Shown one piece after another: positions 2,265 to 21,966 of a DNA stretch of 32,000 nt. The position numbers and the translations under genes were made by a program. The stretch spans positions 1-32,000 of the forward strand of contig JAWBCC010000002.1 in assembly GCA_038823825.1 (NCBI GenBank). The letters run 5' to 3'. Position 1 is the stretch's first letter; the number at the start of each line of letters is the position of its first letter. The notes under the pieces are model-generated. The model was not told the DNA's origin. It searched no databases and saw nothing but the letters and a program-made list of their open reading frames with translations. This stretch comes from Candidatus Hadarchaeales archaeon. GTDB lineage: Archaea; Hadarchaeota; Hadarchaeia; Hadarchaeales; Hadarchaeaceae.

Positions 2265-2891
2265 ATGATGTCTACGGAGCTTCGAAATTTGCTCTCGTCC
2301 ATCCATACCTATTCGGAAGAGCTGGGCCTCGATGTTAGAAAATCTGAAGACAGGTTCGCCTGGTTGATCGCCTCCGTACTTTTCGCGAAGAGAATCTCCT
2401 CCGAAATCGCGAAAAAAACCTTCCTACTTATGAAAAAGGAAGGAATCACGAGCCCGGAGGCCATCATCTCCACCGGCTGGGACAGACTCGTGGAAATCCT
2501 CGATTCCGGCGGATACGTGAGGTATGATTTCTCCACCGCCACAAATCTGCTCGAGCTGGCAAAGGAGATAAAAAGACTTGGCGGGCTGGAAAAAATCCAT
2601 GAACAGGCGAAAGACTCCAAGGAGCTGGAGAAAAAACTAGAGAAGCTTCGCAGTGTGGGACCAACTGCGATCAACATCTTCCTCCGGGAACTCCGTGGAA
2701 TCTGGTCAAAAGCCGATCCAGAGCCCAGTACGCTTGCTCGAGAAGTCGCAGAAAGACTCAAATTTAAAGAAATCAAAAAATTCGAATCTGCGCTTGTCAG
2801 GATAAACTTGGAGTTTTGCAAGAGGAAACGTTGCAGGGAATGTCCAGTTAGAAAATTCTGCCGTTTCACTCGGGAGAAAGCAGAGCTTTAA
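2265..2891 (+). CDS. HhH-GPD / endonuclease III-like fold protein with a C-terminal Cys cluster
   Basis: 208-aa ORF. It has a helix-hairpin-helix-like segment LRSVGPTAINIFLRELRG. The C-terminal CKRKRCRECPVRKFC has spacing C-x4-C-x2-C-x5-C, close to the EndoIII/MutY 4Fe-4S loop spacing. Confidence 0.5.
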   Translation: MMSTELRNLLSSIHTYSEELGLDVRKSEDRFAWLIASVLFAKRISSEIAKKTFLLMKKEGITSPEAIISTGWDRLVEILDSGGYVRYDFSTATNLLELAKEIKRLGGLEKIHEQAKDSKELEKKLEKLRSVGPTAINIFLRELRGIWSKADPEPSTLAREVAERLKFKEIKKFESALVRINLEFCKRKRCRECPVRKFCRFTREKAEL

Positions 2892-3183
2892 GAGCGATCA
2901 GAATGCCGCCGACTATCCCACAGATGCCGCCAACTGTTTGTCCGAGGTAAACTCCCGCCCTCCTCAACTGCTCAGCAACTGAGATGTTACCATAAACTTC
3001 AAAGACATTTGAAAGGAGTTCGAAGCCAACACCGAGCAGGAGAAAAGAAACGGAAACTATCAGAAGTCTTACTCCGAGACCACCTTTTGCCACTACGCCG
3101 CCATATCTAAGGAGAGCCCCAATGATCGAGATGCCAACAGCCGTCAGAAGAATTTCGGTCAGACCGAGCGCCACAGTTTCCAC
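2866..3183 (-). CDS. Small Gly-rich integral membrane protein (about 3 TM), last gene of the surface-protein operon
   Basis: 105-aa ORF with a GTG start. It has three hydrophobic Gly-rich helices. Its start overlaps the MinD-like gene's 3' end by 25 nt, and its 3' end overlaps the convergent gene by 26 nt. Confidence 0.6.
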   Translation of the reverse strand: METVALGLTEILLTAVGISIIGALLRYGGVVAKGGLGVRLLIVSVSFLLLGVGFELLSNVFEVYGNISVAEQLRRAGVYLGQTVGGICGIVGGILIALKALLSPE

Positions 3184-3884
3184 CCTTTCAACCTAATCCT
3201 CTGAATTGGTCCCATCTTGAATTCCTCGCCACAAGTTTCTGCAGCAAGTTTCTTAAATGCAATGGAGGCCCTAGAGCCCGGATGGGAGAGAACACATGGC
3301 ATACCCTCCATCAGACTCTTCATCACGGACGTATCCTCTGGGATCGTCACGATGAGCGGAACGCGGAAAGTCGAAAGTATTTCCGCCTTGCTGACCTCAT
3401 AGCTTGCCACCCTCACTCTGTTCAAAACCACACCGATGACTTTCACATCCTTTTTCTCCGCTATCTTCGTCGCCTTCAGAGCCCTGGAAACCGCTGCGAT
3501 GTCTGGCGTTGTTGTGATGAGAGCACAATCGGAAGAGTTTAGAAACTCCGAGAAGCCTACCGGTGGTGTGTCAAGAATAACATAGTGATATCCGGATTTT
3601 CTAAGAATTTGTCCGAGCTTCTCTCCCTTCAGGCCCTCTATAGAGGAGGATGGCATGACATCGAGCCCTGGTCTGTAGGTGTATGCTTTCAGGTTCTCCA
3701 CTTTTTTCTCCCTCGATGGAATCGGTGGAAAGAGATTGAACCAAAGCGGGAGGTCTGGAGACTCGAGATTGCAGTCTACGAGAAGAACCCTCTTCCCAAA
3801 GTCGGAAGCGAGCGAAGCCCCGACATTTGCTACTACGGCAGTCTTGCCAGTTCCCCCCTTTCCGGATATAACACTTATTATCAA
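3159..3884 (-). CDS. MinD/ParA-family P-loop ATPase (archaeal MinD-like)
   Basis: It has the deviant Walker A ISGKGGTGKT near the N-terminus and ILDTPP. The C-terminal tail IQRIRLKGWKLWRSV is basic and amphipathic. The TTG start overlaps the upstream stop (TTGA at 3881-3884). Confidence 0.9.
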   Translation of the reverse strand: MIISVISGKGGTGKTAVVANVGASLASDFGKRVLLVDCNLESPDLPLWFNLFPPIPSREKKVENLKAYTYRPGLDVMPSSSIEGLKGEKLGQILRKSGYHYVILDTPPVGFSEFLNSSDCALITTTPDIAAVSRALKATKIAEKKDVKVIGVVLNRVRVASYEVSKAEILSTFRVPLIVTIPEDTSVMKSLMEGMPCVLSHPGSRASIAFKKLAAETCGEEFKMGPIQRIRLKGWKLWRSV

Positions 3885-5524
3885 GCCTCTTCACCTGCCC
3901 TCCTCAGGATTTCCACTATTTCCGGCCTACGGCTTGAACTCCATCTCCTCTTCATCAGAAGATATATCGCCAGACATATTGCGATTATGGAGAAGATTAT
4001 CGCGATTATCAGGAGGATGTTTGGCTGGGGAGGGAGAACGACGAAGGCTATTCCTCTCACGATTTCCTGATCCTTAAAGTAGATTCTGACCTCGCCCATG
4101 TACGTCATCGGTTCGACATACTCGGGTAATGTGACGTAAAAGACGAAGGCGCCCGACTTCGTCGGCTCAAGCTTCATGCTAACCCCGTCGGGCTGAACCG
4201 TCCAGCCTATTGGGAGTCGAAGAATGGCTGTCACGAGGAGATTTTCGCTGGAAATATTTCTGAGCGTGAGAATGAGTCTACCAGTTTTTGCTGGTTTCAG
4301 GAACTCCGACTTGAGCTCGACTATCCGGACTAGCTCCACAAGCTCATATATCATAACCACGCGCGGAAAAGCCCAGTAGAGATATCTCTGATAGACTGGA
4401 AGAATTGCTGGTAGCCTGTAAAGGATTTCCCTCTCTTCAAACGGCTGGACACTTTCCAATCTCCACGTCACACCTGAAAGCGAGATATCCTCTGGAAATT
4501 TATCTAGAAAGGCAATTCTGTCTAATACTCCTTGGAAATCGGAAAGAATGTTATCGGTTACGAGGAGAGCTTTGAGAAACTTGGAACCGTTCTTCGCGAC
4601 GAGCTTCACGACAGTTTCCTCGTTCTCCAAGTCCAGATCGATGTGCCTGACCACCATCACATATGGATCTGGAAATCTTGATCGAACCCTTAGAATGGAG
4701 ATCATTTCGGCTATCGAATTTTCCGCCCGAACGGTTATCTTGAAACCATAGTCTCCGGGAGAGACCGTTGCAGGAATCTTAAGAAGGAGATTTACGATCC
4801 TCCTCTCTCCAGCCTCAAGCGATAGGACGCTTGGAAACGACTCGATTGCTCTAAGCATCCAGTTTTCCGCAACCGTGATCCATATCCTCGCATTCTCGAT
4901 CTTACCTGGACCCTCGTTTAAAATCTCGAAGCTCGCGAGCGTCGTGTCACCGGCTCTTTCCTCGATCAGCAGGGGGAACCGCAGAACCCTCAGCCGATAG
5001 AAAACCGGTGGAGCCGGCGGGGGGAGCGGAGGGAGCGGAGGAATCAGCGGAAGTATCTCGAGCGTTGTCCAAGCTGTCTTGGTTGATGTGAAACCCGCCG
5101 AAATCCAGTCTATAACAAGACGACACTTGTAAAATCCGAGCGGAAAACCTGTGACATTCCACGGGATGAGGAAATCCATTCTCGCTCCGGGAGAAATCAT
5201 AACGGTAGGAACAGAAATTCGATGGACTATTTTATTATCTTTGTAGATTTCTATCCTAGAGGTCGGAAGGATGTCGAGATTATAAGAACCGAGATTTCGG
5301 ATGGTGAACGAAAGAGTTGTCGTTTCGTTCTCATGAACCACTGAAGGTATGGCTTGAAAGAGCTCTATGTCTATGCCGACCTCAAGCACCTCTACTGTTA
5401 GAATCGCCTGGGCTTCTTGAGCGAAAACAGGTGATTGGCTAAAAAAGAGAGTAAAGACGAGAAAAAACGTCAGAAGCGCGGTCTTCGAAAAACCACGATT
5501 TCTAAAAATCTGTTCATCCCCCAT
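3881..5524 (-). CDS. Exported CARDB/NEW3-like (COG1361-type) multi-beta-sandwich surface protein with a C-terminal TM anchor
   Basis: 547 aa with an ATG preceded by GGAGTGA. The signal peptide ends ...SPVFAQEAQA. Repeated segments (TLSFTIRNLGS, ASFEILNEGPG, LILTLRNISS) are typical of CARDB/NEW3 sandwiches. There is a Pro linker PLIPPLPPLPPPAPP and a C-terminal TM followed by KRR. Confidence 0.7.
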   Translation of the reverse strand: MGDEQIFRNRGFSKTALLTFFLVFTLFFSQSPVFAQEAQAILTVEVLEVGIDIELFQAIPSVVHENETTTLSFTIRNLGSYNLDILPTSRIEIYKDNKIVHRISVPTVMISPGARMDFLIPWNVTGFPLGFYKCRLVIDWISAGFTSTKTAWTTLEILPLIPPLPPLPPPAPPVFYRLRVLRFPLLIEERAGDTTLASFEILNEGPGKIENARIWITVAENWMLRAIESFPSVLSLEAGERRIVNLLLKIPATVSPGDYGFKITVRAENSIAEMISILRVRSRFPDPYVMVVRHIDLDLENEETVVKLVAKNGSKFLKALLVTDNILSDFQGVLDRIAFLDKFPEDISLSGVTWRLESVQPFEEREILYRLPAILPVYQRYLYWAFPRVVMIYELVELVRIVELKSEFLKPAKTGRLILTLRNISSENLLVTAILRLPIGWTVQPDGVSMKLEPTKSGAFVFYVTLPEYVEPMTYMGEVRIYFKDQEIVRGIAFVVLPPQPNILLIIAIIFSIIAICLAIYLLMKRRWSSSRRPEIVEILRRAGEEA

Positions 5525-5615
5525 AAATCACTCCGAACAAAGAGAATGTTTTTATTCCTTAATAATTTTTTGGGAAAAATAAAGAAATCTGATGCCTCCA
5601 CGTCCTATTTCTGCG

Positions 5616-6845
5616 CTAGATTTTCCTCAGCTCGATCTTCTTCTTCCTGACCGCCCACCAGAGGATGAAGAGCACTATCAGAATCGCGATTATCGCCAAG
5701 ATGGTGATGAGAACCGGAATTGGTATCGGAGGAGCTGGAGCAATGACTTTTATCTTTGGCTTGGCCTCTACCGAATAAGTCGCTCCTAAACCTCCACCGG
5801 CACCCCCTCTAACAGCCTGGGCAAAAACGTCAACATAAATCGTATATATTCCTCCGAGGGCTTCTTTCGAGACTTTCATCTTCAGGAAAACCCTTCTCAC
5901 GGGAATCCAAAGACCTTCTCCGTTGTCGAGATAATATGCGAGTGAATATGCATCAGCATAGTTCTCTATTTCCTTCGGGATCTTGGGTTGGGCTCTGGAC
6001 GTCCTCACATACTCCCGCAGGTTTGGAAGCAGAAAGTTTGCCTCAACCCTCATTCCAAGCCAAGCGCTGTACACAACCTCAAGCCTTGGCCAATCGGCAG
6101 TTTCTCCAGAGGCAAATATCGTCTCTCCCGAATTCTCTGTGAGGAGAACAAAGGAGATTATTCCATCTTTGTTATATTGTGAATAAACCCAAGGAGTAAC
6201 TAACCAACCTACGTCCACGCCCGGAGAAGGCATTACAGCTTGAGCTATTTGCTCTCCGAGGTTCTCCGGTTTCCTAGCCCAGTTTAAGGTATCTCCGTTC
6301 CACCCATCGTTGTCCAGTCCGTAAACCTTCACTATCTTTCCCTCAAAGTTTTCGTCCCTGTTCCGGAGATATAGAACTGCAGATTCTATTTTGCTTCCTT
6401 CAGGTAAATCGGTAAGGTCAAATTTTAAAAATATCATCTTTCTACTTCCCTCGGTTCCTCCTACAACGAGATTACGGCTTCCTCCAAAAGTTTGGTTTGG
6501 CTGTTCCTCCGAGATATACGTGTCGTCGACTGGTTCCACAGCCTTGGAGAGATAAGAACGCACGGGGATATTCTCGAGCGACGGGATTATTCGGATGTTT
6601 TCGAACCAGCCACTGGGGACGGGACTGCCATCCTCTTTTGTGATTTTCACAAACTGAACCCATACCAAGACGTTTTCTGCATTCTCGGCCCAATTCCATA
6701 CGTTTATCTCAACTGTGACATCTTGACCGTATGGAACGGGTATGGGGAGATCCGACCACTTGACTCCAACGCCTATTCCCGCCTCAACAACGCTTGGACT
6801 TATGAGTAAGAAAAGGAAAAAAAAGAAAAAAGACTTATAACTCAA
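5616..6845 (-). CDS. Exported DNRLRE-domain-like surface protein with a C-terminal PIPIP + TM + KKK tail
   Basis: 409 aa with a TTG start and signal FFFFFLFLLISPSVVEA. The segment VDDTYISEEQPNQTFGGSRNLVVG...IFLKFDLTDLPEGSKIESAVLYL...WNGDTLNWARKP matches my recollection of the DNRLRE pattern. The C-terminus reads APAPPIPIPVLITILAIIAILIVLFILWWAVRKKK. Confidence 0.7.
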   Translation of the reverse strand: MSYKSFFFFFLFLLISPSVVEAGIGVGVKWSDLPIPVPYGQDVTVEINVWNWAENAENVLVWVQFVKITKEDGSPVPSGWFENIRIIPSLENIPVRSYLSKAVEPVDDTYISEEQPNQTFGGSRNLVVGGTEGSRKMIFLKFDLTDLPEGSKIESAVLYLRNRDENFEGKIVKVYGLDNDGWNGDTLNWARKPENLGEQIAQAVMPSPGVDVGWLVTPWVYSQYNKDGIISFVLLTENSGETIFASGETADWPRLEVVYSAWLGMRVEANFLLPNLREYVRTSRAQPKIPKEIENYADAYSLAYYLDNGEGLWIPVRRVFLKMKVSKEALGGIYTIYVDVFAQAVRGGAGGGLGATYSVEAKPKIKVIAPAPPIPIPVLITILAIIAILIVLFILWWAVRKKKIELRKI

Positions 6846-6855
6846 GCTAATCCCT

Positions 6856-7419
6856 TTATGGGCCTGGGGCCGTGTTCTCTACGGCTTTGACTGTCAACGT
6901 ACCGGTGTAAGTTCCTCCGAGCTGGTCGGGAGCTGTGCTGAGGGCTGGGAAGACGTTGTATTCGTCGTAGCCAACGCCAGACGGTGGCTTTCTTAGGCCG
7001 ACCAACCACGGAATGGTTTCAAGCTCGTGTCTCGCGACCAAGAAGTTTTCATTTCCCTCTTCTCCAATAGCCAACTTCCAGAACTGGATGTTCTCGATGT
7101 TGTTGTCTCCTCCGGACTTGGCTAGATACATTCCAGCATACACCGCATCATATTCGGCCTTTGCCTGCAGATCTGTCTTGACCGTCGTGGTGTCGAGAAT
7201 CCTGATCCAATACTCATCAACAGGAGCCGGCGGTGTGACATTATGCGCGTTGACGCTTACTGTTCCCCAGTCGATGTCTCCCTCGATCGTTATGTCGATG
7301 ACGACTCCGATAGTCGCGCTGAGCGTAGCAGTTTGAGTGTCAACAGGCATCACCGCAGGAATGCTCAGAAGTGTTCCAAGCACTGCGAAAGCTGTTGCGA
7401 AACCCAACAATCTCTTCAT
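6856..7419 (-). CDS. Small exported beta-rich protein, a possible fibre or fimbrin-like subunit (function unknown)
   Basis: 187 aa with an ATG preceded by GAGGG. The Sec-type signal is MKRLLGFATAFAVLGTLLSIPA. An alternating T/A strand (TQTATLSATIGVVIDITIEGDIDWGTV) and the C-terminal GGTYTGTLTVKAVE recall beta-sandwich pilin-like folds. There is no C-terminal anchor. Confidence 0.6.
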   Translation of the reverse strand: MKRLLGFATAFAVLGTLLSIPAVMPVDTQTATLSATIGVVIDITIEGDIDWGTVSVNAHNVTPPAPVDEYWIRILDTTTVKTDLQAKAEYDAVYAGMYLAKSGGDNNIENIQFWKLAIGEEGNENFLVARHELETIPWLVGLRKPPSGVGYDEYNVFPALSTAPDQLGGTYTGTLTVKAVENTAPGP

Positions 7420-7520
7420 TCTTTCCCTCTGGATAACCTTCCTACATCCGTCTATTTAAGCTTTTCGCAAGTATGGGGAAGAATCGTACCTTTAAATCCT
7501 AATTGTGGGGTGGCTAAATT
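7420..7520. promoter_or_regulatory. Shared divergent control region between the surface-protein operon and the giant gene
   Basis: This is a 101-nt intergenic region. TATA-like boxes lie at 7452-7460 (cttaaatag on the minus strand, about 35 nt from the ATG at 7419) and at 7491-7497 (tttaaat, about 25 nt before the TTG at 7521). GGGGTGG at 7507-7513 could act as an SD for the TTG at 7521. Confidence 0.35.
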
Positions 7521-10500
7521 TTGTCGAAAAGAATAAATAGATCGCACGATAAAAGATTTCTGGTAAAGAAATTGAACATGTTTACATCTTATAACAGAAA
7601 GGAATTCACCCTCTTGCTCCTCGGGTTAGTGATTTCTGGACTTTTCGCCATTCTCTGGACGGGACTCGCAAGCGCAACGCCAGATATCACCATCTCAGTC
7701 TTTCTCAACGACGAAATCGTTAACCCAGAACAAACGATCGTTGCCTGGGGAATCGCCGAAGAAGACGGTGCCCCGCTAGACAACAGAATTGTCCGATTCT
7801 TCTTGGATGGGGCTTTTCAAACCTTGAGCTGGGGTATGCCTTCATCGGCCCCTTGGGAGGCTGGAATACGGGAAAACACGATCATCGAAGCAAATAGAAT
7901 AAAACTTCAGTACAAGCCGGACATGGACATCGTTTTCATAAACGAAAACGGATACATCAGCTGGATTGACCCATACCGAGAAGTCAAGACGCTCGGAGTG
8001 TATGCAGACAAGCTCGGCGGAGCTGGAGACATTGACGGAGACGGGAAAATCGATGTGGTTTTTACGGATGGACCTCAGGGTGCTCTGAAATATGTTGACG
8101 TTGACAATAACATTAGAACGCTTGTAGCTTCCGGCGTTGTTAACGTTGCAAAGGGGCTTGCGGATTTCGATGGAGACGGAAAGCTGGACGTTCCGTATGT
8201 CACCACTGCTTATGACTACAAAATTTATTTCGTAGACTATGAAGGACGAATCCGGAGCGTCGGACCACTGCCCATACATCCGCTTCTGCTTGGCGGAGTA
8301 GGAGACTTCGATAACGACGGAAAACCGGAGGTCTCGTTCGGATATATGAGCGACATCCGGCACGTGGACATAGACGGTCAAGTTATAAGCATGGGAGGGA
8401 GCGTACAGTTTCACCAGACGGATCGAAGATCTGATATTAGTCAGGCGGCCGACTTCAATGGTGACGGTCGACTCGACGTCGCATATAATCCTCCCTCGGC
8501 ATACTCTGACCTTTGGATAACAGACAACCGCGGAAACGTCAGACGGGTTCTTCCTACTGGTAATGTTTTCGGTGGACTCGGCACGGTCGGTGGAATGGGT
8601 GACTTCTACGGAGATGGAAGAATTGTTATAGCCTACAAAGCCTTCTTCACATCAACTGGTAATAGATACACACCATCTCACATCATGGTGGTTGACAATA
8701 CAGGGAGGATAGATAATCTCGGAGTTCTTGCGAGATACATCGGCCCAATTGTCGACTTTGACATGGACACAGGATACGTGCCATCAGGAAGCTACAGAAC
8801 ACCGGTGATCGACTGGAGATCTCCGACGATAAGAATCGAAAACATAACCTTGACAGTGGCCATACCCGTGGATACGAGACTCTGGGTGAACGTGCAGGTC
8901 TCCGACGACAACTTCTCAACCATTAAAGATAGCAATCTTCTGGTTCTCACCCCTGGTATGGGAGGCATCGACAGAACGTTTCCGCTCAGCCTAAAGCCTG
9001 CCAGATATGCCCGAGTAATCTTCTCCTTCTTCACAGACGACCTTTCCAGAACAGCAGTACTCACATCCTTTACCCTCAACACAAACATCGTTACTTTAGA
9101 AAATGGCTGGTACATGCGCACTTTTGAGGCTCCTTCAACGCTGGGTACGCACCAAATCAAATTCACAGTGGAGAGATATCCCTATCTAGGAGAAAACACA
9201 AAAACTTTCGACGTGCGCAGACTAGTTTTCGAACCGGCTGGCCTCCTCGACGAACACGGGCAAATAGACAACATCTTGAATCCGGGAGAAAGATACTACG
9301 TCCTTGTTAAAATCCAGGAAGAAAACGGAACTCACAGATATGATGTCACATCTGGTTCGTTTACCGAAAACATCGGCGGAACTCTCCATAGCCTGATATA
9401 CCTTGAGAATTCGATCTGGAGGACATCCCTCCAGCTCACCGCTCCAACGACGATCGGCACATACTCCTTCGGTTCAACAGTCTCCGGCTACTCTGCCGAA
9501 AACATAATAGGTTCTGGCAACGTTACACACACATACTATGTCAAGACTCTAGAAATCCAGCTCTTCTTCGAGCGTTCTTGGGTCAACCCGGGAGACAATG
9601 TTACGATTTATGGCCGGGTAAAGAAATGGCCCGACAACGTCTGGGTCGAGGACGCGGATGTTGACGTGTATGTGGCTGGGAACTATGTGGCGACAGTAAG
9701 AACTCAGAGTGGAGAAAACGCTGGAAGATATAAATATACCTTCCAGGCTCCGAGAACGCTGGGCGGATATCCGGTCAGGGTTTGGATATCCCACCAAGGA
9801 CTCGACAGAGAAAACACCTCCACCTTCTACGTCAAAACCCTCACGATCACCGTTAACATGGATCCGGCGAGCCATCAGGTCAGACCTGGCGTGAAGGTAA
9901 GAATCTATGGAGTCGTCAGGAGATGGCCCGAGGGAACTCCTGCGAGCTACGCGACAGTTAAGCTTAGAATGGGCCCGCTAGACAACTACGAAAACATAAA
10001 CTGGCCCGTTGCAGACAACATCGCGCGAGCCGACGGTTCCTACGACATTTACTTTACCGTCAGGGATGAATGGGTCGGAGAATTCAAGCTTGTTGTAATC
10101 GCGACAGACAACTACTTGTTAGAGAACGAGAACTCCACCTGGATGCTCAGCGAAACTATAAAAATATCCGTCTACTTCTCAAGAAGCAACGTCCCGCCCG
10201 GAACGCTCATCTACGTTTGGGGATGGGCAATATTCCAGCCGAGCGGGGTTCCGGTTTCTAACAATCCCGTCAGCATCTGGAAGTGGGAAGGTGCAGATGA
10301 AGACGCTACATTCACCGACGAGAACGGAAGATATGAATATTATTTCTACGCCCCACAGAACTGGGGTAACTACAACTTCAGGGTGAGAACTTCGAAAGCT
10401 GGACTGACTGGAGAAAACGTGTATCCATACAAGGTTAGCACAATCTTGATTTCATTGAACATAGACGATAAGATTGTAAACAAAGGGCAGGAGATAAACA

Positions 10501-13500
10501 TAAGCGGAAGAGCGGCGCTCTTCCCGGGCAACTTGCCGGTGGGCAATACTGTTTTCAGATATTCTGTCGGATGGAGACCGGGGTACAGCTACACACGAAC
10601 GGATGAAAACGGAAACTACACATTTGTTGAAACTGCCCCATCCGCAATCGGAAGATACACCATAAAAGTTGAAATCGCCCAGGGAGATTTCAGCGGGGAG
10701 AACGCCGATAACATCGAGACTAGGGACATGCTGATCTCCGTTTCATTGAGCAAAACAAAGGCTATCCCGGGCGAAAGGGTAAGAGTTAGCGGCTTGACAA
10801 CCGTGTTGCTTCCGGGCGGGGAAAATAGGCCTCCTCGCGGCGGAACAAGAGTAGATATATACATCGATGACGAATGGTGGGCATACACATACACCGATAC
10901 GAGTGGATATTACTGGAAAGACATAAACGCCCCTGACGTTGGACCACACGAGGTAAAGGTCGTTTGCGCAGATAACGAGAACATCATTGGAGAAAACGTC
11001 ACGTATCTCTACGTGGAACGCATTCTTATTTCCGTTAACGTTGACAGGGATCCTTCCAACCCAGGAGCTGCAAACAGAGTCTGGGGATATGCATGGTTCC
11101 AGTACAGCGGAGACCCTGTTGAGAACTATGTACAAATCCGTCTTAATGGTGTGCCGATCGCAACGGTTATGACAAACCGTTTCGGATACTACGAAAATAA
11201 CTTCACCTCACCAACCTCGCTTGGTGAGCACAGAATCGATGTCACAATGTTGCATGAAAACTTCAGGGGAGACAATACGCGGTGGTTCTGGGTAAGAACC
11301 CTGGACATTCCAGTGAATCTGAGCGATAAGATTGTGAGGAGCGGGCAGTACATAACGGTCAGCGGAAGAATAACCGTTCAACCTGGCGGATGGCCAGTTC
11401 CTCAGTATACAGTTGTGCGCATATATCCGAGCTGGACCTCTCCAATAATAACATCCACCGGCCCAGATGGTACTTACACGGCCGGTCTAAATGCCCCCGC
11501 AACTCTTGGGATCCACACGATAAGGGTTGAAGCGGAGGAGGGGGAGAACGGCATAATGGGAAGCAGGGAAAACACGATAGAGGTCCGAGAGCTCCGCTTC
11601 TCAGAGTTTAAACTTGTAGACAACCACGGGCAGGAGGACCGAATAATGAATCCGGGTGAATCCTACAGACTATTCATAAGAATTCAGGAATTCAATGGAG
11701 CCTCATATTTCGACGTTGAGGAAACTCATCCATCAAATCCGTTCAAGGTCACGATCGCGGGTCAAGACTACACCCTTGCATACACCGGAAGTTCTGGAAT
11801 ATGGAGAACTCCTTACCTCACAGCAGAGAGTTCGCTCGGGATGTATGTGGTCTCCGCATTCTTCTTCGGAAGTTCAGCTAACGATATCTATGGAAGCCAA
11901 TCAATCAACTATACATACGACGTGAAGACAATCTGGCTTTCGCTTGTCATAGATAATGTAGTCAATCCTATGGAAAACACAACAATTTCCGGCAGAGCTA
12001 TTCTATTGCCAGATGATGCCCCTGTCAAACGAGAAAACGTATTTATCTTCAAAGAAGACGAACTGCTTACAATCGTTCAGACCGACTGGGAAGGTTATTT
12101 CAGATATTCCTTCGTGGCTCCTGACCTGCTCGAAAATTACTTCCTGAAAGTTAGAATAACCGATGCCAACGGAATTGAGAGAGAAAACTCCAGAAGACAG
12201 TGGGTGAAAACAATTGAAATTTCCATATTCCTAGGCGAAGAGGTCGTCGGAATTTCTCCCACTGACAATGTGTATGGTTGGGTCATTCTACATCCAGACA
12301 ACATACCACAAAGCGGCTTGGCTGTGAGGATTTTCGGAACCGGTCTAGACAACGAACAAACTGTGTATACCAACGATGAAGGTTATTACTTCCTGCAGTT
12401 CAACGTTTCTGCATATGCTAGGAATTACGGATTTGGAGAGGTCAGAGTTCAAGTCAGGAATGCTGACAACATTTACAATGAAAACTCCGCGACCTACTAT
12501 GTCGGAACTCCGGTAAACGTGAGGGGATGGATGAAGAATGCTGAAGGAAAACCGCTTCCCGCAACTTTCGAGTTCACATCGATTTCGAAAGGTTATACCC
12601 TCAGAATTTCCGTAAAACCAGACGGAACATACAGTGGCGTAATAATAAAAGACGATTATCATATGACATTCAGACTCTTTGGGCATTCTATAACTTTCTA
12701 CTCCGTGAGGACTTTCTCAGAAGCCCAGCAATGGGAGAACTTTGATAATCTAATCCGAATAGACAATATACCGCGATCCGCAGCATACGTTTCAGACAAC
12801 GTGAACACGATATTCGCTATTGCTATAGAAATAGACAACAAGCTCGCGGACAATTTCCAGACTGCGACGATCGTTCTGGATTACACACCATGGCTCGGGA
12901 TGATAACAAACGAAAGCAACCTTGCCGTCTACAAGGCGAGCTGGGATATGGCGAGAAGAGAAAACACAAGTAAATGGACAAGGCTTGGAGGAACTATCAA
13001 CAAGATCGATCACACAATAACTCTCAGTGGAGTTACCAAATTCTCGGCATATGTGGTGGGCGAGAGTGTACCTTCCATGCAGGATGTCGTTGGACCGATC
13101 GTTGGGCCTTTAGTGGGGCCGATCGTTGGACCACTTAGAGGACCGATACCAGATTACAGCGGGACTCTGAGGAAGATCATGGGGCTCATCGCAGATATTC
13201 AGACGACGGTGGAGAACCTGCCTACTCTTGAAAATCTCCCGCAAACTCCACCAGTGGAGGTTACTCCGAGTCCTTCCGCCGGTGTGTCTCTCGATATGTA
13301 TCCTGGAGAAACGGCCAAAGTTCCACTTTCAATCAAGAACAACTCCAATGTTCCGATTATCGTCACCGCATCAAAAGTCGGTCAGACATCCGCCTTCATC
13401 TCCTTCGAAGAACCGTACATAACCGTTCAGCCAGGAGATGTAGGAAAAGTTATGCTTGTCGTTCATATACCTGAAAACACACCGAAGGGTCTTTACACAG

Positions 13501-15284
13501 GTTCTGTTTTCCTTTATCCTGGAGTCCTGCAGGCTCCGATTGAAATTCCTGTCAAGATTCGCGTTCTCTCTCCGGCCAGAAGTCTGCTTGATGTAAGAAT
13601 ATCTTCACTTCTCCCAAGCGTTAATCCTGGTAAACATCAGAAAGCCGAGGTTACACTCTACAACATGGGAGAAGAGAAGAGAGTCGATGCCGTGGTGAGA
13701 GTTCAACTCATTGATCCGGACACTTTAGCTGTTCTCAATGAGGTTGAGGAAACTATGGCGGTCGAGACTTCTTTGAGCAGAATCTTTAGCCTGAAGGTTC
13801 CTGAAAACGCAAAGGAAAAATATTACTACCTAAAAGCTTTGGCGACTTATCTGACAGGCGAAAACAGAGAGATGCAGGCAAGTGCTCTCGCCTCGATGTC
13901 TGTGATAATTCCATTCTGGGATAAAACAACCTGGGGGATTTCCAACAAGATATTCTACTCTGTGATAGCCGCTGCGATTGCCGCCGGAACGGCCGGTTAC
14001 CTGTACTACCGCAGGCTGAAGAAATTACGCGAAGCACAGAAGAGATATGAAAGGGTTCTATCCTTCACCGAACTTCCACAGCCTGGACCGAGAAGCGCCT
14101 TCATAGGAAAACTGGCTGAAACCCCGAGAAAGGCATATCTGTACCTAGATGACCTCAGAACTCACGCGATTGTTGCTGGAGCGACCGGAGCAGGCAAAAC
14201 CATAATGACGCAGGATCTTGCCGAAGAGGCACTCATGCACGGAATCGATGTCTTCGTTTTCGACCCGACAGCACAGTGGACTGGAATGCTCCAAAAGTGT
14301 ACCGAGCACGAGATGCTTAGACACTATGACAAGTTTGGAATGAAGGAGAGAGATGCAGCGGGATTCCCAGGATATATAAAGAGAATCAAGGATCCAACTG
14401 AGTATCTCAACCTAGGCAAACTGCTCAAGAGACCGAAGAAAGAAGGAGAGATGGGCAGGATATGGGTTTTCCTGATCGACCAGCTTGACAGCAGAGATCT
14501 TGACGTTTTCATCGCAAACACCATAAACGACATCTTCAAGAGCAATCCCGAGGAGAGCCAGAAGCTTAGGGCGCTCATAATCTTTGACGAGGTCCACAGA
14601 CTCCTACCCAGATTCGGAGGAAAAGGTCTGGGAATAACGATGCTCGAGCGCGCCGTAAGAGAATTCAGAAAATGGGGAATTGGTCTCGTGCTCGCTTCGC
14701 AAGTCATTGCTGACTTTGAAAAGGAAATAAGAGCAAACATAAGAACACAGATCCAGCTCTGGACGAGAGATGAGGAGGAACTCGAGAGGATAAAGGAGAA
14801 GTTCGGACTCGGCTACATGCAGTCGGTCGCCAAAGCGGCCGTTGGGACCGGAATGGTATTCAACTCCGACTACAACAAGGGTAGACCTTACTTCATCCAC
14901 TTCAGGCCCATTCTCCACAGATTGACCAGACTAGAAGAAGATGTGATAATAAAGTGGGACAAATACACCAGGAGACTTGAGGAGCTCCAGGAGAAACTCG
15001 ATAAGCTGAGAGAGGCTGGAGCTGACATTTTCGACCTTGAGATCGAACTCGGGCTAGCGAGAAAGAAACTAGAAGAGGGTGCGTTCGACGTCGTCGATCT
15101 CTACTTGGAATCTGTTGAACCTAGAATTGATAAAGAGTGTAAGGCGAGAAAAATAGAAATCAAAAAAGTCAGGGTTACTGAGGAAGAGCTGAAGAAGGCC
15201 GAGATGGAGGCTAAGAAAGAAAGAGTAAAAGCGGAGAAGGCGGAGGACGAGAAGGAATCCAGAAAGCCCGAAAAGAAAACATGA
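7521..15284 (+). CDS. Giant (2,587-codon) surface protein: signal/anchor, FG-GAP/VCBS propeller, Ig-like repeat stalk, CARDB/NEW3-like domains, one TM helix, cytoplasmic HerA/FtsK-superfamily ATPase, coiled-coil tail
   Basis: The ORF is uninterrupted. The start is either TTG 7521 (SD-like GGGGTGG upstream) or ATG 7578 (MFTSYNRKEFTLLLLGLVISGLFAILWTGLASA). Domain evidence is given in the sub-features below. Confidence 0.9.
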   Translation: MSKRINRSHDKRFLVKKLNMFTSYNRKEFTLLLLGLVISGLFAILWTGLASATPDITISVFLNDEIVNPEQTIVAWGIAEEDGAPLDNRIVRFFLDGAFQTLSWGMPSSAPWEAGIRENTIIEANRIKLQYKPDMDIVFINENGYISWIDPYREVKTLGVYADKLGGAGDIDGDGKIDVVFTDGPQGALKYVDVDNNIRTLVASGVVNVAKGLADFDGDGKLDVPYVTTAYDYKIYFVDYEGRIRSVGPLPIHPLLLGGVGDFDNDGKPEVSFGYMSDIRHVDIDGQVISMGGSVQFHQTDRRSDISQAADFNGDGRLDVAYNPPSAYSDLWITDNRGNVRRVLPTGNVFGGLGTVGGMGDFYGDGRIVIAYKAFFTSTGNRYTPSHIMVVDNTGRIDNLGVLARYIGPIVDFDMDTGYVPSGSYRTPVIDWRSPTIRIENITLTVAIPVDTRLWVNVQVSDDNFSTIKDSNLLVLTPGMGGIDRTFPLSLKPARYARVIFSFFTDDLSRTAVLTSFTLNTNIVTLENGWYMRTFEAPSTLGTHQIKFTVERYPYLGENTKTFDVRRLVFEPAGLLDEHGQIDNILNPGERYYVLVKIQEENGTHRYDVTSGSFTENIGGTLHSLIYLENSIWRTSLQLTAPTTIGTYSFGSTVSGYSAENIIGSGNVTHTYYVKTLEIQLFFERSWVNPGDNVTIYGRVKKWPDNVWVEDADVDVYVAGNYVATVRTQSGENAGRYKYTFQAPRTLGGYPVRVWISHQGLDRENTSTFYVKTLTITVNMDPASHQVRPGVKVRIYGVVRRWPEGTPASYATVKLRMGPLDNYENINWPVADNIARADGSYDIYFTVRDEWVGEFKLVVIATDNYLLENENSTWMLSETIKISVYFSRSNVPPGTLIYVWGWAIFQPSGVPVSNNPVSIWKWEGADEDATFTDENGRYEYYFYAPQNWGNYNFRVRTSKAGLTGENVYPYKVSTILISLNIDDKIVNKGQEINISGRAALFPGNLPVGNTVFRYSVGWRPGYSYTRTDENGNYTFVETAPSAIGRYTIKVEIAQGDFSGENADNIETRDMLISVSLSKTKAIPGERVRVSGLTTVLLPGGENRPPRGGTRVDIYIDDEWWAYTYTDTSGYYWKDINAPDVGPHEVKVVCADNENIIGENVTYLYVERILISVNVDRDPSNPGAANRVWGYAWFQYSGDPVENYVQIRLNGVPIATVMTNRFGYYENNFTSPTSLGEHRIDVTMLHENFRGDNTRWFWVRTLDIPVNLSDKIVRSGQYITVSGRITVQPGGWPVPQYTVVRIYPSWTSPIITSTGPDGTYTAGLNAPATLGIHTIRVEAEEGENGIMGSRENTIEVRELRFSEFKLVDNHGQEDRIMNPGESYRLFIRIQEFNGASYFDVEETHPSNPFKVTIAGQDYTLAYTGSSGIWRTPYLTAESSLGMYVVSAFFFGSSANDIYGSQSINYTYDVKTIWLSLVIDNVVNPMENTTISGRAILLPDDAPVKRENVFIFKEDELLTIVQTDWEGYFRYSFVAPDLLENYFLKVRITDANGIERENSRRQWVKTIEISIFLGEEVVGISPTDNVYGWVILHPDNIPQSGLAVRIFGTGLDNEQTVYTNDEGYYFLQFNVSAYARNYGFGEVRVQVRNADNIYNENSATYYVGTPVNVRGWMKNAEGKPLPATFEFTSISKGYTLRISVKPDGTYSGVIIKDDYHMTFRLFGHSITFYSVRTFSEAQQWENFDNLIRIDNIPRSAAYVSDNVNTIFAIAIEIDNKLADNFQTATIVLDYTPWLGMITNESNLAVYKASWDMARRENTSKWTRLGGTINKIDHTITLSGVTKFSAYVVGESVPSMQDVVGPIVGPLVGPIVGPLRGPIPDYSGTLRKIMGLIADIQTTVENLPTLENLPQTPPVEVTPSPSAGVSLDMYPGETAKVPLSIKNNSNVPIIVTASKVGQTSAFISFEEPYITVQPGDVGKVMLVVHIPENTPKGLYTGSVFLYPGVLQAPIEIPVKIRVLSPARSLLDVRISSLLPSVNPGKHQKAEVTLYNMGEEKRVDAVVRVQLIDPDTLAVLNEVEETMAVETSLSRIFSLKVPENAKEKYYYLKALATYLTGENREMQASALASMSVIIPFWDKTTWGISNKIFYSVIAAAIAAGTAGYLYYRRLKKLREAQKRYERVLSFTELPQPGPRSAFIGKLAETPRKAYLYLDDLRTHAIVAGATGAGKTIMTQDLAEEALMHGIDVFVFDPTAQWTGMLQKCTEHEMLRHYDKFGMKERDAAGFPGYIKRIKDPTEYLNLGKLLKRPKKEGEMGRIWVFLIDQLDSRDLDVFIANTINDIFKSNPEESQKLRALIIFDEVHRLLPRFGGKGLGITMLERAVREFRKWGIGLVLASQVIADFEKEIRANIRTQIQLWTRDEEELERIKEKFGLGYMQSVAKAAVGTGMVFNSDYNKGRPYFIHFRPILHRLTRLEEDVIIKWDKYTRRLEELQEKLDKLREAGADIFDLEIELGLARKKLEEGAFDVVDLYLESVEPRIDKECKARKIEIKKVRVTEEELKKAEMEAKKERVKAEKAEDEKESRKPEKKT
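7960..8790 (+). repeat. FG-GAP/VCBS-type repeats (integrin-like beta-propeller) within the giant protein
   Basis: At least six spaced Ca-binding-type motifs are present: GDIDGDGKIDVVF, ADFDGDGKLDVPY, GDFDNDGKPEVSF, ADFNGDGRLDVAY, GDFYGDGRIVIAY and VDFDMDTGY. Confidence 0.75.
9538..12505 (+). repeat. About nine to ten diverged ~95-100-aa Ig-like (carboxypeptidase-regulatory-like) repeats, interrupted by a second copy of a distinct ~110-aa module
   Basis: Each unit starts V(K/R)T(L/I)xIx(V/L) and carries ...PG..v.i.G......P.g.pv....V......TDenG.Y...f.aP...G.y...v......GEN. Examples are YVKTLEIQLFF..., YVKTLTITVNM..., KVSTILISLNI..., YVERILISVNV..., WVRTLDIPVNL..., DVKTIWLSLVI... and WVKTIEISIFL.... 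Confidence 0.75.
13089..13148 (+). repeat. Five tandem 12-nt units encoding (VGPx)5: VGPI VGPL VGPI VGPL RGPI
   Basis: The units are gttggaccgatc / gttgggccttta / gtggggccgatc / gttggaccactt / agaggaccgata, read directly from the sequence. Confidence 0.9.
13950..14009 (+). other. Single predicted transmembrane helix of the giant protein
   Basis: IFYSVIAAAIAAGTAGYLYY is followed by RRLKKLREAQKR. By the positive-inside rule the downstream ATPase lies in the cytoplasm. Confidence 0.7.
14100..14920 (+). other. HerA/FtsK-superfamily (DUF87-like) P-loop ATPase domain of the giant protein
   Basis: Walker A is HAIVAGATGAGKT (GATGAGKT at 14178-14201). Walker B is LRALIIFDEVHRLLP (about 14573-14596). 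REFRKWGIGLVLASQVIADF...IRTQIQLWTRDEEE resembles the HerA eGRKfGvgl.l.sQrP...l.lrl pattern. Confidence 0.7.
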
Positions 15285-15324
15285 TAAGGGTTTTTGAATA
15301 TAATAACGATATTTTTGATGGTTG

Positions 15325-16017
15325 GTGAATTTGCCCGAAAAAAAGAAGAAAGAAACTCTTGCAGATAGGGTCGAAAAGCTGAGCGCACAAATGGAAGCTT
15401 TCGGAAAACTCAGGGAGAGCTTAGATATGAGGATCTCCATGCTGAACGAAAGAATCGGAGAGCTCAGAGCGATGGTTCTGAGAACCGAAAAAGATATGAT
15501 GGAGATCCGTGCGAAAACCGAAAGGACTACCGGGATAATCGAAGAGCTCGACCCAAGCAAAATAATGGGAGAGATCAGGAGGATGCAGGCGCGGGTCGAG
15601 ACGCTGGCGGCGAGGATAGATGCAACCGATGCTAAGCTTGACGCAATTAGTTCTGAACTTAGAGAAGTTAGGAGAGAGATTGGAAAGTTCCGTGGGGTTG
15701 AAAGCGTACTTTCCCTCTCCGAGGAGGTCAGGGCTGACTTGACGGAGATGGAAAAGATTGCGGCAGATGTCAGGAGGCAGGCGGACAGGGTGATGGCCAT
15801 CTTCGCGGAGCTGAGGGATAGGATGGGAAAAACCGAAAGGTTTGTAGCTAGGCTCGAGGCGCTCGAGGATTCGACAAAATCACTAAATAAGGGACTGAGC
15901 GAGCTTGCACCGAAGGTCGAAGAAGCTCTTGCTAGAATAGAAGAGCTGAGGGCGACGGCAAAAGCGACAAATCCTGAAGCCAAGGAGGAAAAACCCAAAG
16001 AGGAGAAAAAGAAATAA
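15325..16017 (+). CDS. Charged coiled-coil protein, paralogue A (function unknown)
   Basis: About 230 aa with heptad-rich E/R/K/L composition. It is collinear without gaps with the 23876..24442 product (MEAFGKLRESLDMRISMLNERIGELRA vs METISRLRESYDTRLSTISESIGSLKA; FRGVESVLSLSEEVRADL vs FKGIEELLELAKEIREDI). I prefer the GTG at 15325 as the start by alignment with the paralogue's ATG; the track uses TTG 15322. Confidence 0.75.
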   Translation: MNLPEKKKKETLADRVEKLSAQMEAFGKLRESLDMRISMLNERIGELRAMVLRTEKDMMEIRAKTERTTGIIEELDPSKIMGEIRRMQARVETLAARIDATDAKLDAISSELREVRREIGKFRGVESVLSLSEEVRADLTEMEKIAADVRRQADRVMAIFAELRDRMGKTERFVARLEALEDSTKSLNKGLSELAPKVEEALARIEELRATAKATNPEAKEEKPKEEKKK

Positions 16018-17929: not shown

Positions 17930-18936
17930 GTGGAAGACAAAATCCTCATAACCGGAATTGGCGGTGCTGCTGGCATATCCGTTGCAAAGAGTCTAAACGA
18001 GTTTTATTTAGTGGGTGTAGACGCTAATCCAAATGCACCTGGAAAAGTGCTGGTGAATGAATTCTATCAGATACCCTATGCTCGTGAGGAAAACTTCGTC
18101 GAAGAGCTCGCGAAAATCGCGAAAGAATGTTACTGCATGTTTTGCACGGTCGATGAGGAACTTCCAATCGTTGCAAAAAACATGGATGTTTTCGGCTGTA
18201 AGGTGCTTGTTTCACCATTAGAAAGCATAGAAAGATGTCTTGACAAGTTTGCGCTCCATTCATACCTTCGTGATAGAGGACTACCGACTCCCAAGACAGT
18301 GTTGCTAGAAAACCAGAGTTTTGAAGAACTAATGACGGAGCTTGGACCTTTCATCGTGAAGCCTAGAAGAGGAAGAGGTAGTAGAGATTTTTTGAGGTCA
18401 AAAATGAAGATTACTTTAGGTTTATTTTGAGCGCAAAGAATTACTTAAAGAAAGAGTTCATCTGTCAGAAAGAATTGAAGGGCAAAGAATACTCGGTTGA
18501 CGTTCTGCTAGACGAAAATGGAAAATTTTTGATTGCTGTTCCACGCGAGAGAATCTTAACCGATAGCGGAATTTCGATTGTTGGGAAAACTGTCATAAAT
18601 CCAAAACTCCAGGAGATCGTGCCGAGGATTGTTGAAGCGCTGGGATTAAAATACATAGTAAATGTTCAACTTAAAGAGGACGAGAATGGTGAACCCTACG
18701 TAACGGAAGTTAACCCCCGACCCGCTGGAACACTTTATCTAACAACGCTGTCCGGAGTGAACATGCCAAGACTCCTAATTAAGCTACTCGCAAAGGAGAA
18801 AATTGAGCCGTGGGGGTTGAGATACGAGGAACTTATCATGTATAGACTTTTTGAAGAGAAGATTTACCGGAAAAAAGGAAGAGGAGGAAAACAGAAAAGC
18901 AAAATATACAGGCATGATGACGTCTATCTGAAATGA
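17930..18936 (+). pseudogene. ATP-grasp ligase (carbamoyl-phosphate-synthase-like ATP-grasp fold) split into two ORFs by a -1 frame change in a T6 run
   Basis: ORF1 (17930-18430) carries ILITGIGGAAG...DKFALHSYLRDRGLPTPKT...IVKPRRGRGSRDF. ORF2 (frame -1) continues upstream of its listed start as FFEVKNEDYFRFIL...EYSVDVL...VTEVNPRPAGT. The frames join at tttttt 18388-18393. The ORF2 stop overlaps the GT2 start (ATGA at 18933-18936). Confidence 0.75.
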
Positions 18937-21570: not shown

Positions 21571-21966
21571 TCATGGAAGCAGAGATTCTCTCGTCCAGCC
21601 AGACATCTTTTTCAGTTCCTCCCCACCCACGTACACGATGGCATCTACCTTTCTCCCATCCTCGAGCTCGACTTCCACGACCTTCTTTGTAAAAAGTCCA
21701 AAAGAAACTCCCTCTATCTCATCTAACTTCCTGATGATTTCATCCGGAACGCATTGATAGAGCTCGCCCTTAACGCTTCCTGATGGGTCCTCTTTGATGA
21801 ACGGAAAGTTTAGCTCAGAAGGCCAGACGAGTCTGAAACCCCGAATTCTACCTAAAACAGGCTGATAGCAGGCCAATACATTGGATCTAGGATGCGTGAT
21901 AACCTCCCCGCTCCTGGGGTCTCTGAATTTCCTCATCAAGGTCCCATAAACAAAAACGTTCGTCAT
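21571..21966 (-). CDS. GGACT/AIG2-like gamma-glutamyl(amine) cyclotransferase-fold protein
   Basis: VFVYGTLMRKF...VKGELYQC...LDEIEGV...DAIVYV matches the family pattern. Confidence 0.75.
   Translation of the reverse strand: MTNVFVYGTLMRKFRDPRSGEVITHPRSNVLACYQPVLGRIRGFRLVWPSELNFPFIKEDPSGSVKGELYQCVPDEIIRKLDEIEGVSFGLFTKKVVEVELEDGRKVDAIVYVGGEELKKMSGWTRESLLP

Follow-up and report, generated by a model that had tools for sequence, protein, structure and literature searches.

What might be encoded by five adjoining genes that lie back to back with the gene for a giant surface protein, when three of their products carry signal-like segments, one is a cytoplasmic ATPase and one is a small membrane protein? 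This question is raised by the first 32,000 nucleotides (nt) of contig JAWBCC010000002.1 from an uncultured Candidatus Hadarchaeales archaeon of a hot spring, a stretch referred to throughout as the window. The initial annotation had described five co-oriented genes on the minus strand, divergent from a giant gene whose product combines FG-GAP and immunoglobulin-like (Ig) repeats with a HerA-like ATPase domain, and a check of the open reading frames (ORFs) bore out the claimed coordinates, gaps and overlaps as well as the divergent arrangement (Table 1). From 5' to 3' along the set, the genes encode a 187-aa protein, a 409-aa protein with a DNRLRE domain, a 547-aa protein with CARDB and NEW3 domains, a 241-aa MinD-like ATPase and a 105-aa membrane protein; gaps of 10 and 91 nt separate the first three, and the last three overlap by 4 and 25 nt. 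We read the set as a Sec-dependent surface-fibre or matrix module, in which a pilin-like subunit is combined with membrane anchors, one of them organised by a MinD-type ATPase, and we give this reading an even chance of being correct.

The five ORFs are real genes and not chance reading frames, because relatives preserve all five as proteins, with identities of 62-76%. For the small membrane protein most annotations place the start three codons downstream, giving 102 aa, and its N-terminus is still conserved in relatives. By hydropathy, the 187-, 409- and 547-aa proteins each begin with a signal-like segment, and the latter two have a C-terminal transmembrane anchor; together with the family scans, this upheld both the topology and the domains (DNRLRE, CARDB/NEW3 and MinD/ParA) that had been claimed for the set.

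The 187-aa protein, the N-terminus of which is Sec type I-like, gave no Pfam or NCBIfam match in the family scans of the window. A word-based homologue search returned seven close matches, all from one clade, while an exhaustive HMMER search with a family profile found 16 relatives, most of them secreted proteins of 163-209 aa that are 24-40% identical. None of these 16 relatives belongs to a Pfam family, and a sequence-profile search of the PDB with the family yielded nothing meaningful; the protein founds a small, unannotated family that is absent from Pfam. An AlphaFold2 model built with only eight close homologues had a predicted local distance difference test (pLDDT) score of 29. With a 14-sequence alignment that included distant family members, the pLDDT was 80.9 and the predicted template modelling score 0.70, residues 1-36, which comprise the signal peptide and the first part of a strongly conserved strand, remaining below a pLDDT of 50. 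When the latter model was compared with the PDB by Foldseek, the top 50 matches were dominated by donor-strand-exchange pilins. The best was CS20 (E 1.3e-3, probability 1.0), others included FimA and FimG of the type 1 pilus, CfaB and CfaE of CFA/I, HdaB, PapA and Caf1, and the Pyrodictium cannula protein CanA stood at rank 12 (E 1.4e-2, probability 0.97). Across these pilins and CanA, E-values ranged from 1e-3 to 5e-2, probabilities from 0.9 to 1.0, TM-scores from 0.35 to 0.5 and identities from 9 to 16%, so that the predicted likeness at the level of the fold is modest in strength and very consistent in kind.

The best-conserved parts of the family are an N-terminal strand of the mature protein, TATLSATIGVVIDITIEG, with an alternating hydrophobic pattern, and a C-terminal strand of the form Q..G.Y.G.L.V. 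An N-terminal extension and a C-terminal G.Y.G.L.V strand pattern are typical of donor-strand subunits. The N-terminal strand was mostly left without a confident place in the monomer model, and we infer that it may act as the donor strand. Because of the fold matches and the two conserved terminal strands, a donor-strand subunit is most likely the best reading of the 187-aa protein, which would then polymerise. The statement in the initial annotation that no recognisable pilus components are present is thus outdated, since by its predicted fold the small beta-rich protein is pilin-like and of the donor-strand type. The same domain was also found in other settings: it forms the C-terminal domain of P0192, a 549-aa, Ig-rich secreted protein (locus L096, 1873-3522) with a layout that resembles an adhesin joined to a pilin domain, and in one case, P0204, a Laminin_G_3 domain is inserted between its N- and C-terminal halves.

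The two secreted proteins with C-terminal anchors are of different kinds. Family scans assigned the 409-aa protein to DNRLRE/CBM96 (E 4.5e-27; DNRLRE_dom, 3.5e-22), and CBM96 has been described as an alginate-binding module (PMC9971899). The protein has a signal peptide and ends in an anchor made up of PIPIP, a transmembrane helix and RKKKIELRKI. Distant orthologues (242 aa in L095 and 236 aa in L098) keep the N- and C-terminal domains and the Pro-rich, transmembrane and basic ...LRI end and are without DNRLRE, and the anchor C-terminus (PP.P.P, a transmembrane helix and a K/R-rich ...LRI) is conserved in L095 and L097; judged from these alignments, the DNRLRE/CBM96 domain is a lineage-specific insertion. 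Elsewhere in the window, the tail of a 231-aa secreted protein (22634-22730, minus) consists of IPIS, a transmembrane helix and RTRK, like that of the 409-aa anchor (5616-5740, minus), and a 179-aa archaeosortase-family protein (20291-20830, plus), with ArtF and XrtG as nearest models and with CSA, NALR and FHDW motifs, is encoded after a glycosyltransferase family 2 (GT2) synthase. No known CTERM model matched these tripartite tails in the family scan, and the tails and the archaeosortase-family protein may represent an uncharacterised sorting signal and its sortase.

In the 547-aa protein, referred to below as the CARDB protein, Pfam recognised CARDB (E 1.5e-6) and NEW3 (NPCBM_assoc, E 1.8e-8). 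It has a signal peptide, one C-terminal transmembrane helix at about residues 491-526 and a cytoplasmic tail. Its close homologues number only 12 among 5.8 billion clusters and fall into one narrow clade, and a metagenome scan with its C-terminus found a single locus, at 99%. Within the tail, the motif R-W ... RP-E-(I/V)-(V/L)-E-(I/L)-L-R is conserved in loci L008, L005, L010 and L009, where overall identity is 43-73%. The 4-nt overlap between this gene and that of the MinD-like ATPase reads TTGA and is preceded by AGGAGG...GGTGA, which places a good Shine-Dalgarno sequence 7 nt before the TTG start. We infer from the conserved tail motif that the tail may dock the MinD-like ATPase.

The 241-aa protein belongs to the MinD/ParA superfamily (CbiA, E 2.7e-18). 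TIGR01969 minD_arch is by far its best model (E 7.4e-40), at a score of 136.7 bits, below the model's cutoff of 201.75, and its best solved relatives are the archaeal MinD structures 1G3Q, 1HYQ and 1ION (E ~1e-23). The deviant Walker A motif SGKGGTGKT (residues 7-15) is invariant in both MinD alignments and Walker B is present. In contrast to the canonical D-x-D, Walker A' reads D37-C38-N39 and is invariant in the clade; the nearest archaeal relatives have DGN, DCN or DCS at this site, and the canonical DAD is found in the Methanoperedens MinD P0093. There is also a deletion in the region after switch I. The second Asp of D-x-D presumably corresponds to D40 of E. coli MinD (in the D38/D40 numbering), the loss of which impairs hydrolysis, and the D-C-N motif suggests a slow ATPase or a switch. 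Close cluster representatives are only four (98, 67, 53 and 50% identical), followed by a drop to about 40%, and by its sequence the protein appears to be a divergent archaeal MinD paralogue. Its basic C-terminal 16-mer has a helical hydrophobic moment of 0.55, compared with a maximum of 0.47 for every other 16-mer of the protein, as would suit a membrane-targeting helix; this amphipathic tail is present in the window protein and in the 67% homologue, and similar tails occur in related archaeal MinDs. Family scans of the 32-kb window found neither MinC or MinE nor a known cargo system such as an archaellum or a chemosensory array.

A further MinD of this lineage, the closest outgroup, with 407 aa and about 40% identity, in L006, lies 5 nt downstream of the gene for a signal-peptide protein. 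This upstream protein has a beta-propeller, DUF11, one transmembrane helix and a cytoplasmic tail of about 120 aa, and its ectodomain is unrelated to the CARDB protein. Because two unrelated ectodomains thus share the same layout upstream of one MinD lineage, there is support for a model in which an ATPase of this lineage would read the cytoplasmic tail of a single-pass surface protein. Downstream of the L006 MinD, itself extended at its C-terminus, lie genes for a 349-aa coiled-coil protein, a Peptidase_A24 prepilin peptidase and a Lon_C protein (10001-13678), so that MinD is linked here to a surface context of another kind. In DPANN-type archaea (L019, L020 and L024), a related MinD has a conserved protein of 140-154 aa upstream and an Sm-like protein downstream, a recurring neighbourhood that may mark another MinD partner.

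The 105-aa protein, encoded last in the set, has three hydrophobic segments and 17% Gly and belongs to no family. It is 76% identical over residues 2-105 in L005 and L008, and its distribution among the loci described below suggests that the small membrane protein, of 102-105 aa, is an accessory and non-universal member.

Comparison with related loci indicated how firmly the genes are associated. In L001-L005 (MinD 98% / 67% identical) the CARDB, MinD and small membrane-protein genes and a convergent 208-aa gene are found together, and in L008 (187-aa protein 75%) all five genes adjoin the N-terminus of the giant. L092 (187-aa protein 87%) has the giant, 187-aa, DNRLRE and CARDB genes, the contig ending in the last of these. 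L009 and L010, with MinDs of 50-53% identity, encode a CARDB-type C-terminus (42-47%) directly upstream of MinD. More distantly, L095 (187-like 40%, giant 33%) has a giant-like gene, a 187-like gene, an anchor orthologue without the DNRLRE domain and a CARDB-like N-terminus, the gene order is the same in L097/L098 (187-like 38%, giant 36-37%), and in L094 a 187-like gene (39%) is followed by an anchor-like N-terminus at the contig end. L007 (giant 71%, 187-aa protein 70%; region 10555-10652 with flanks) reads HAD, wecB, coiled-coil, giant and 187-aa gene, then GPN-loop GTPase, AsnC and Sua5. The order giant / 187-like, anchor, CARDB-like persists at 33-40% identity (window, L092, L008, L095 and L097/98), the divergent pairing of giant and 187-like genes recurs in L007, L008, L091/92, L095 and L097/98, and CARDB followed by MinD, seen in the window, L001-5, L008, L009 and L010, holds down to 42-53% identity. 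From these alignments the tightest link in the set appears to be that of CARDB with MinD. Since L007 is without the other four genes and L009 without the small membrane-protein gene, the set appears to be modular, consisting of a giant/pilin-like pair and an anchor-CARDB-MinD block, with or without the small membrane protein, which usually occur together and are separable. In several metagenome-assembled genomes (MAGs) the contig is broken precisely at the junction of the 187-aa gene with the DNRLRE gene (L091; partial proteins), which hints at strain-level variation in presence and absence there.

The earlier expectation of synteny stood for the most part: the giant accompanies the 187-aa, DNRLRE and CARDB genes in L008 and L092, and MinD as well in L008, with the core order kept at 33-40% identity, while L007 has the giant without the MinD block. 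Of the overall interpretation offered in the initial annotation, the domains, the topology, the divergent arrangement and most of the synteny hold; an obligatory tie of the MinD block to the giant does not, as L007 keeps the giant and the 187-aa gene and not the block, nor does the 105-aa protein as a fixed member, as L009 has an unrelated soluble protein in its place, nor, probably, does the single transcript. The five genes are probably not one operon: within the 91 nt that precede the CARDB gene there is a T-run and after it a TATA-like element rich in A and T (ATTTCTTTATTTTT, then AAAAAATTATTAAGG), and because of these the set may be two transcription units. The counterpart gap in L008 is 41 nt and also has a TATA-like element, TTTAAAAAAT; a second promoter for the CARDB, MinD and small membrane-protein genes is plausible on this comparison. 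Upstream of the 187-aa gene, the element resembling a transcription factor B recognition element (BRE) and TATA box has the conserved consensus CGAAA(A/G)nCTTAAA(T/A)AG. The control region shared with the giant, described before as 101 nt long, is conserved back to back, and its length depends on where the giant begins. Annotations give most orthologues of the giant 2568 aa, 19 residues fewer than the 2587 aa of the window, and some MAG annotations use TTG 7521. A start at M20 (ATG 7578) would fit 2568 aa if the difference is N-terminal, and the shared region would then be about 158 nt and not 101 nt. A scan for sigma-70 promoters and hairpin terminators gave counts at or below shuffle expectation, which are uninformative for an archaeon.

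From the reality of the genes, their domains, the fold similarity, the synteny and the coupling of CARDB with MinD, the following working of the module can be proposed. Donation of the conserved N-terminal strand would most likely let the 187-aa subunit, a predicted pilin-like beta-sandwich, polymerise or dock onto a partner, the mode being donor-strand complementation as in chaperone-usher pili and in archaeal threads, bundling pili and cannulae. The two single-pass membrane proteins, the CBM96-bearing two-domain anchor and the CARDB/NEW3 Ig-like protein, would serve as a cell-proximal base or adaptor. The MinD-family ATPase would be made in stoichiometric coupling with the CARDB protein, would bind the membrane via its amphipathic C-terminus and would probably bind the cytoplasmic tail of the CARDB protein, and its ATP-dependent dimer would cluster, place or stabilise the CARDB anchor from inside the cell. 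As its Walker A' motif has Asn where the second Asp is expected, the ATPase would act as a slow switch or scaffold and not as a fast oscillator. The small protein, with its three transmembrane segments, would be an optional accessory. The module stands back to back with the giant, of which the pilin-like gene is the constant partner. That MinD positions its partner is suggested by what is known of its family.

Several results weigh against a surface-fibre module of this kind. The fold matches, with E-values of 1e-3 to 5e-2 and TM-scores of 0.35-0.5, are modest and come from one AlphaFold2 model of 14 sequences, and searches of Pfam, NCBIfam and PDB profiles found no sequence relationship of the 187-aa protein to TasA/AbpA (PF12389), CanA or the thread pilin Saci_0406. 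L007 lacks the DNRLRE, CARDB, MinD and small membrane-protein genes in the 3.2 kb after its 187-aa gene, and the contigs of L095 and L097/L098 stop before the expected position of MinD. The amphipathic tail of the ATPase is much shorter in the 50-53% homologues P0003 and P0004. The small membrane-protein gene is not universal, the unrelated protein encoded downstream of MinD in L009 being soluble. Finally, a GTDB genome scan with the MinD alignment gave no Hadarchaeales orthologue among the matches listed, the best listed being a 41% identical MinD from Aenigmatarchaeota.

Some of these results would also be expected if the genes were a loose neighbourhood of independent envelope proteins, S-layer-associated or glycan-binding, in which MinD and the small membrane protein serve general cell organisation and are adjacent by accident. 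Archaeal MinD paralogues are numerous and have diverse neighbours, and homologues of the CARDB, 187-aa, DNRLRE and small membrane-protein genes were found in none of the 80 GTDB loci with related MinDs that were listed. That L007 retains the giant with the 187-aa gene and lacks the four-gene block, that L009 has lost the small gene and that the 91-nt gap probably holds an internal terminator and promoter all point the same way. In contrast, the start/stop overlap of CARDB and MinD with its Shine-Dalgarno sequence persists while the proteins diverge to 42-53%, the cytoplasmic tail of the CARDB protein is conserved, the order of giant / 187, anchor and CARDB is kept at 33-40% identity, and L006 provides a parallel in which a single-pass surface protein again precedes MinD. 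We consider a loose neighbourhood of this kind unlikely.

A different proposal, close to that of the initial annotation, is that a single large structure, with the giant adhesin-ATPase at its core, is positioned by MinD together with the 105-aa protein, so that MinD-like and HerA-like ATPases work in one machine. The back-to-back promoter region is conserved together with the divergent arrangement, the genes co-occur in the clade of the window, in L092 (as far as CARDB, where the contig ends) and in L008, and ParA/MinD ATPases are known to position archaeal cargo, examples being Haloferax MinD4 and MinD2 (10.1101/2020.04.03.021790, PMC11588486). However, the giant of L007 is not accompanied by MinD, the partnership that MinD conserves is with the CARDB protein and not with the giant, L009 can do without the 105-aa protein, and nothing ties MinD to the cytoplasmic domain of the giant. 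We judge this proposal to be quite improbable.

The surroundings of the set bear on a third alternative. In the giant itself, Pfam recognised FG-GAP_3, Invasin_D3, CarboxypepD_reg, DUF87 and HerA_C, and a PDB search matched the HerA-like YjgR (1.1e-7). Downstream of it follow genes for a coiled-coil protein, WecB, a HAD hydrolase, a split ATP-grasp protein, a PgaC-like GT2 synthase (PgaC_IcaA, 8e-42; XrtG-associated glycosyltransferase, 2.4e-26), the archaeosortase-family protein and a convergent PIG-L deacetylase. Because these envelope genes lie downstream of the giant, the five genes stand at the edge of an envelope/exopolysaccharide island. Coiled-coil proteins are encoded at 15322-16017 and 23876-24442 (plus); the one of 231 aa that immediately follows the giant is also kept in L007 and L091. 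Two ORFs sharing 4 nt (17930-18430, 166 aa, and 18427-18936, 169 aa, both plus) encode the carbamoyl-phosphate-synthase-like ATP-grasp protein, the first corresponding to the N-terminal and the second to the C-terminal half of the same models; the gene is either truly split or only appears so through a frameshift or an error of assembly. Two tandem gamma-glutamyl-cyclotransferase-like genes (21571-22481, minus) also lie in the island. On the other side of the set, the convergent 208-aa gene (2265-2891, plus) shares 26 nt with the 3' end of the gene for the small membrane protein; its product has a C-terminal Cys cluster, CKRKRCRECPVRKFC, and a weak MutY-type match, and it is conserved beside the block in L001-L005 and L008 and looks functionally unrelated to it. 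Beyond it, a long ORF (2-2197, minus) runs off the window start and probably encodes another surface protein, its orthologue in L001 (at least 729 aa) combining a calcineurin-like phosphoesterase with DUF2341.

Table 1. Genes and candidate elements of the five-gene set and the divergent giant gene, in window positions.
Feature	Position	Strand	Basis or content
187-aa gene	7419-6856	minus	ORF
409-aa gene	6845-5616	minus	ORF
547-aa gene	5524-3881	minus	ORF
241-aa gene	3884-3159	minus	ORF
105-aa gene	3183-2866	minus	ORF
Conserved N-terminal strand of mature 187-aa protein, TATLSATIGVVIDITIEG, candidate donor strand	7279..7332	minus	alternating hydrophobic pattern family-wide
Cytoplasmic tail of CARDB protein, KRRWSSSRRPEIVEILRRAGEEA, candidate MinD docking peptide	3884..3952	minus	conserved in orthologues
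MinD-like protein: amphipathic, basic C-terminal tail, PIQRIRLKGWKLWRSV, putative helix for membrane targeting	3162..3209	minus	hydrophobic moment
BRE/TATA-like element of 187-aa gene, CGAAAAGCTTAAATAG, then GGAGG leader	7452..7468	minus	intergenic alignment of window, L092, L008 and L007
91-nt gap with T-run and A/T-rich TATA-like element, candidate terminator and internal promoter	5525..5615	minus	sequence reading
Giant surface protein, 2587 or 2568 aa	7521..15284	plus	FG-GAP/Ig repeats, transmembrane helix, cytoplasmic HerA-like ATPase domain

With wecB, HAD, ATP-grasp, GT2 synthase, archaeosortase-family and PIG-L deacetylase genes nearby, the set could be seen as an exopolysaccharide module in which the ATPase is a partner of the PgaC-like synthase, in the manner of BcsQ or a bacterial tyrosine kinase (BY-kinase), the CARDB protein a co-polymerase or activator and the CBM96 protein a binder of the polymer. 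In the activator/BY-kinase pairs of Firmicutes, a transmembrane protein with a cytoplasmic tail is encoded directly upstream of a P-loop protein, a layout that the CARDB and MinD-like genes resemble. The ATPase has partial matches to BcsQ (PF06564, 25.1 bits), eps_fam and an XrtA-associated tyrosine autokinase, and CBM96 is reported to bind acidic polysaccharide (PMC9971899). Yet the BcsQ-type matches cover only the N-terminal P-loop third of the protein (residues ~2-90), with MinD models reaching 7e-40 against 1e-9, and there is no C-terminal tyrosine cluster, the last 40 residues of the ATPase being devoid of Tyr. A 7.8-kb giant gene stands between the block and the synthase, which are on opposite strands, next to the giant L007 retains wecB and HAD and lacks the MinD block, and distant orthologues of the anchor are without DNRLRE/CBM96. 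We leave this alternative only a small chance.

Other candidates were dismissed: a type IV pilus or archaellum, for which the scans of the window proteins found no class III signal peptides, PilB/ArlI, PilC/ArlJ or prepilin peptidase, in agreement with the initial annotation; a defence system, as PADLOC had no match to any of the five genes and matched the ATPase of the giant only to generic HerA types; a BY-kinase, as the ATPase has no tyrosine cluster; BcsQ, to which similarity is at the P-loop level only; and, as a comparison, the archaeal Dip oscillator, which is a GTPase and not a MinD.

For the Sec-dependent fibre or matrix module, no described system with this combination of genes was found in the literature searched, and each of its parts belongs to a known kind. 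In its boldest form, the proposal would make the locus a first candidate for an energy-coupled machinery that assembles or anchors an archaeal donor-strand-type fibre, with a new pilin-like family, anchor tails read by MinD and a giant protein with a HerA/FtsK-type motor domain; this we hold to be distinctly unlikely. If it were true, some archaeal fibres other than type IV would be built or placed under the control of a cytoplasmic ATPase and would not be self-assembling. The locus offers a concrete and testable candidate for the anchoring or organising of donor-strand fibres from inside the cell, and a first functional hint on the cell surface of Hadarchaeota, a lineage of the subsurface and of hot springs that has resisted cultivation. 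It also points to a possible type of cargo for archaeal MinD paralogues that goes unmentioned in the literature searched, namely the cytoplasmic tails of single-pass surface proteins.

Set beside known systems, the locus is alike and unlike in different respects. With BcsQ and the activator/BY-kinase pairs it shares a MinD/ParA-superfamily protein encoded directly after a tailed membrane protein, and a processive GT2 synthase in the region; it differs in that the similarity is at the level of the P-loop, there is no tyrosine cluster, and the set lies on the opposite strand at about 15 kb from the synthase. Archaeal MinD proteins (P. furiosus 1G3Q; Haloferax MinD4/MinD2) are the best sequence relatives of the ATPase and share the deviant Walker A, Walker B and the amphipathic tail. 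In contrast to them, the window protein falls below the TIGR01969 cutoff and has the D-C-N Walker A' and the deletion after switch I, its gene is translationally coupled to that of a single-pass surface protein, and the window is without archaellum or chemotaxis genes.

Structurally, the 187-aa model comes closest to chaperone-usher pilins (FimA, PapA, CfaB, CS20 and Caf1), with probabilities of up to 1.0. Identity to them is, however, 9-16% and the TM-score 0.35-0.5, the host here is an archaeon without an outer membrane, and Pfam found no PapD-like chaperone or usher genes in the window. Another parallel is with archaeal filaments built by donor-strand complementation, namely the Sulfolobus threads (Saci_0406), the archaeal bundling pili (ABP) of Pyrobaculum (AbpA/AbpB), the Pyrodictium cannulae (CanA/CanX) and the haloarchaeal tafi, which have only recently been discovered. 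The authors of the thread (PMC9715654) and ABP (PMC9245690) studies found no chaperone or usher candidate and left the assembly pathway unresolved, and the cannulae are described as chaperone-free in polymerisation. In the texts searched, the word 'ATPase' is absent from the ABP, tafi and cannulae papers and occurs once in the thread paper, and 'MinD' and 'ParA' are absent from the tafi paper. The ABP operon encodes a pilin, the 410-aa beta-rich AbpB, proteins with four transmembrane segments and a GTPase (PMC9245690); it is alike in outline, the window having a beta-rich secreted and anchored partner of about 410 aa and small proteins with several transmembrane segments, and unlike in sequence. 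With these filaments as a group the locus shares a small, beta-rich subunit that has a Sec-type signal and a conserved N-terminal strand, a pilin-like fold, predicted in the case of the 187-aa protein (CanA being among the Foldseek matches), and the lack of chaperone or usher genes. In contrast to them, its 187-aa protein is a predicted fibre subunit, with no detectable sequence homology to their pilins, and the locus adds to the common plan a MinD-family ATPase coupled to a CARDB protein and a giant surface protein fused to a HerA domain.

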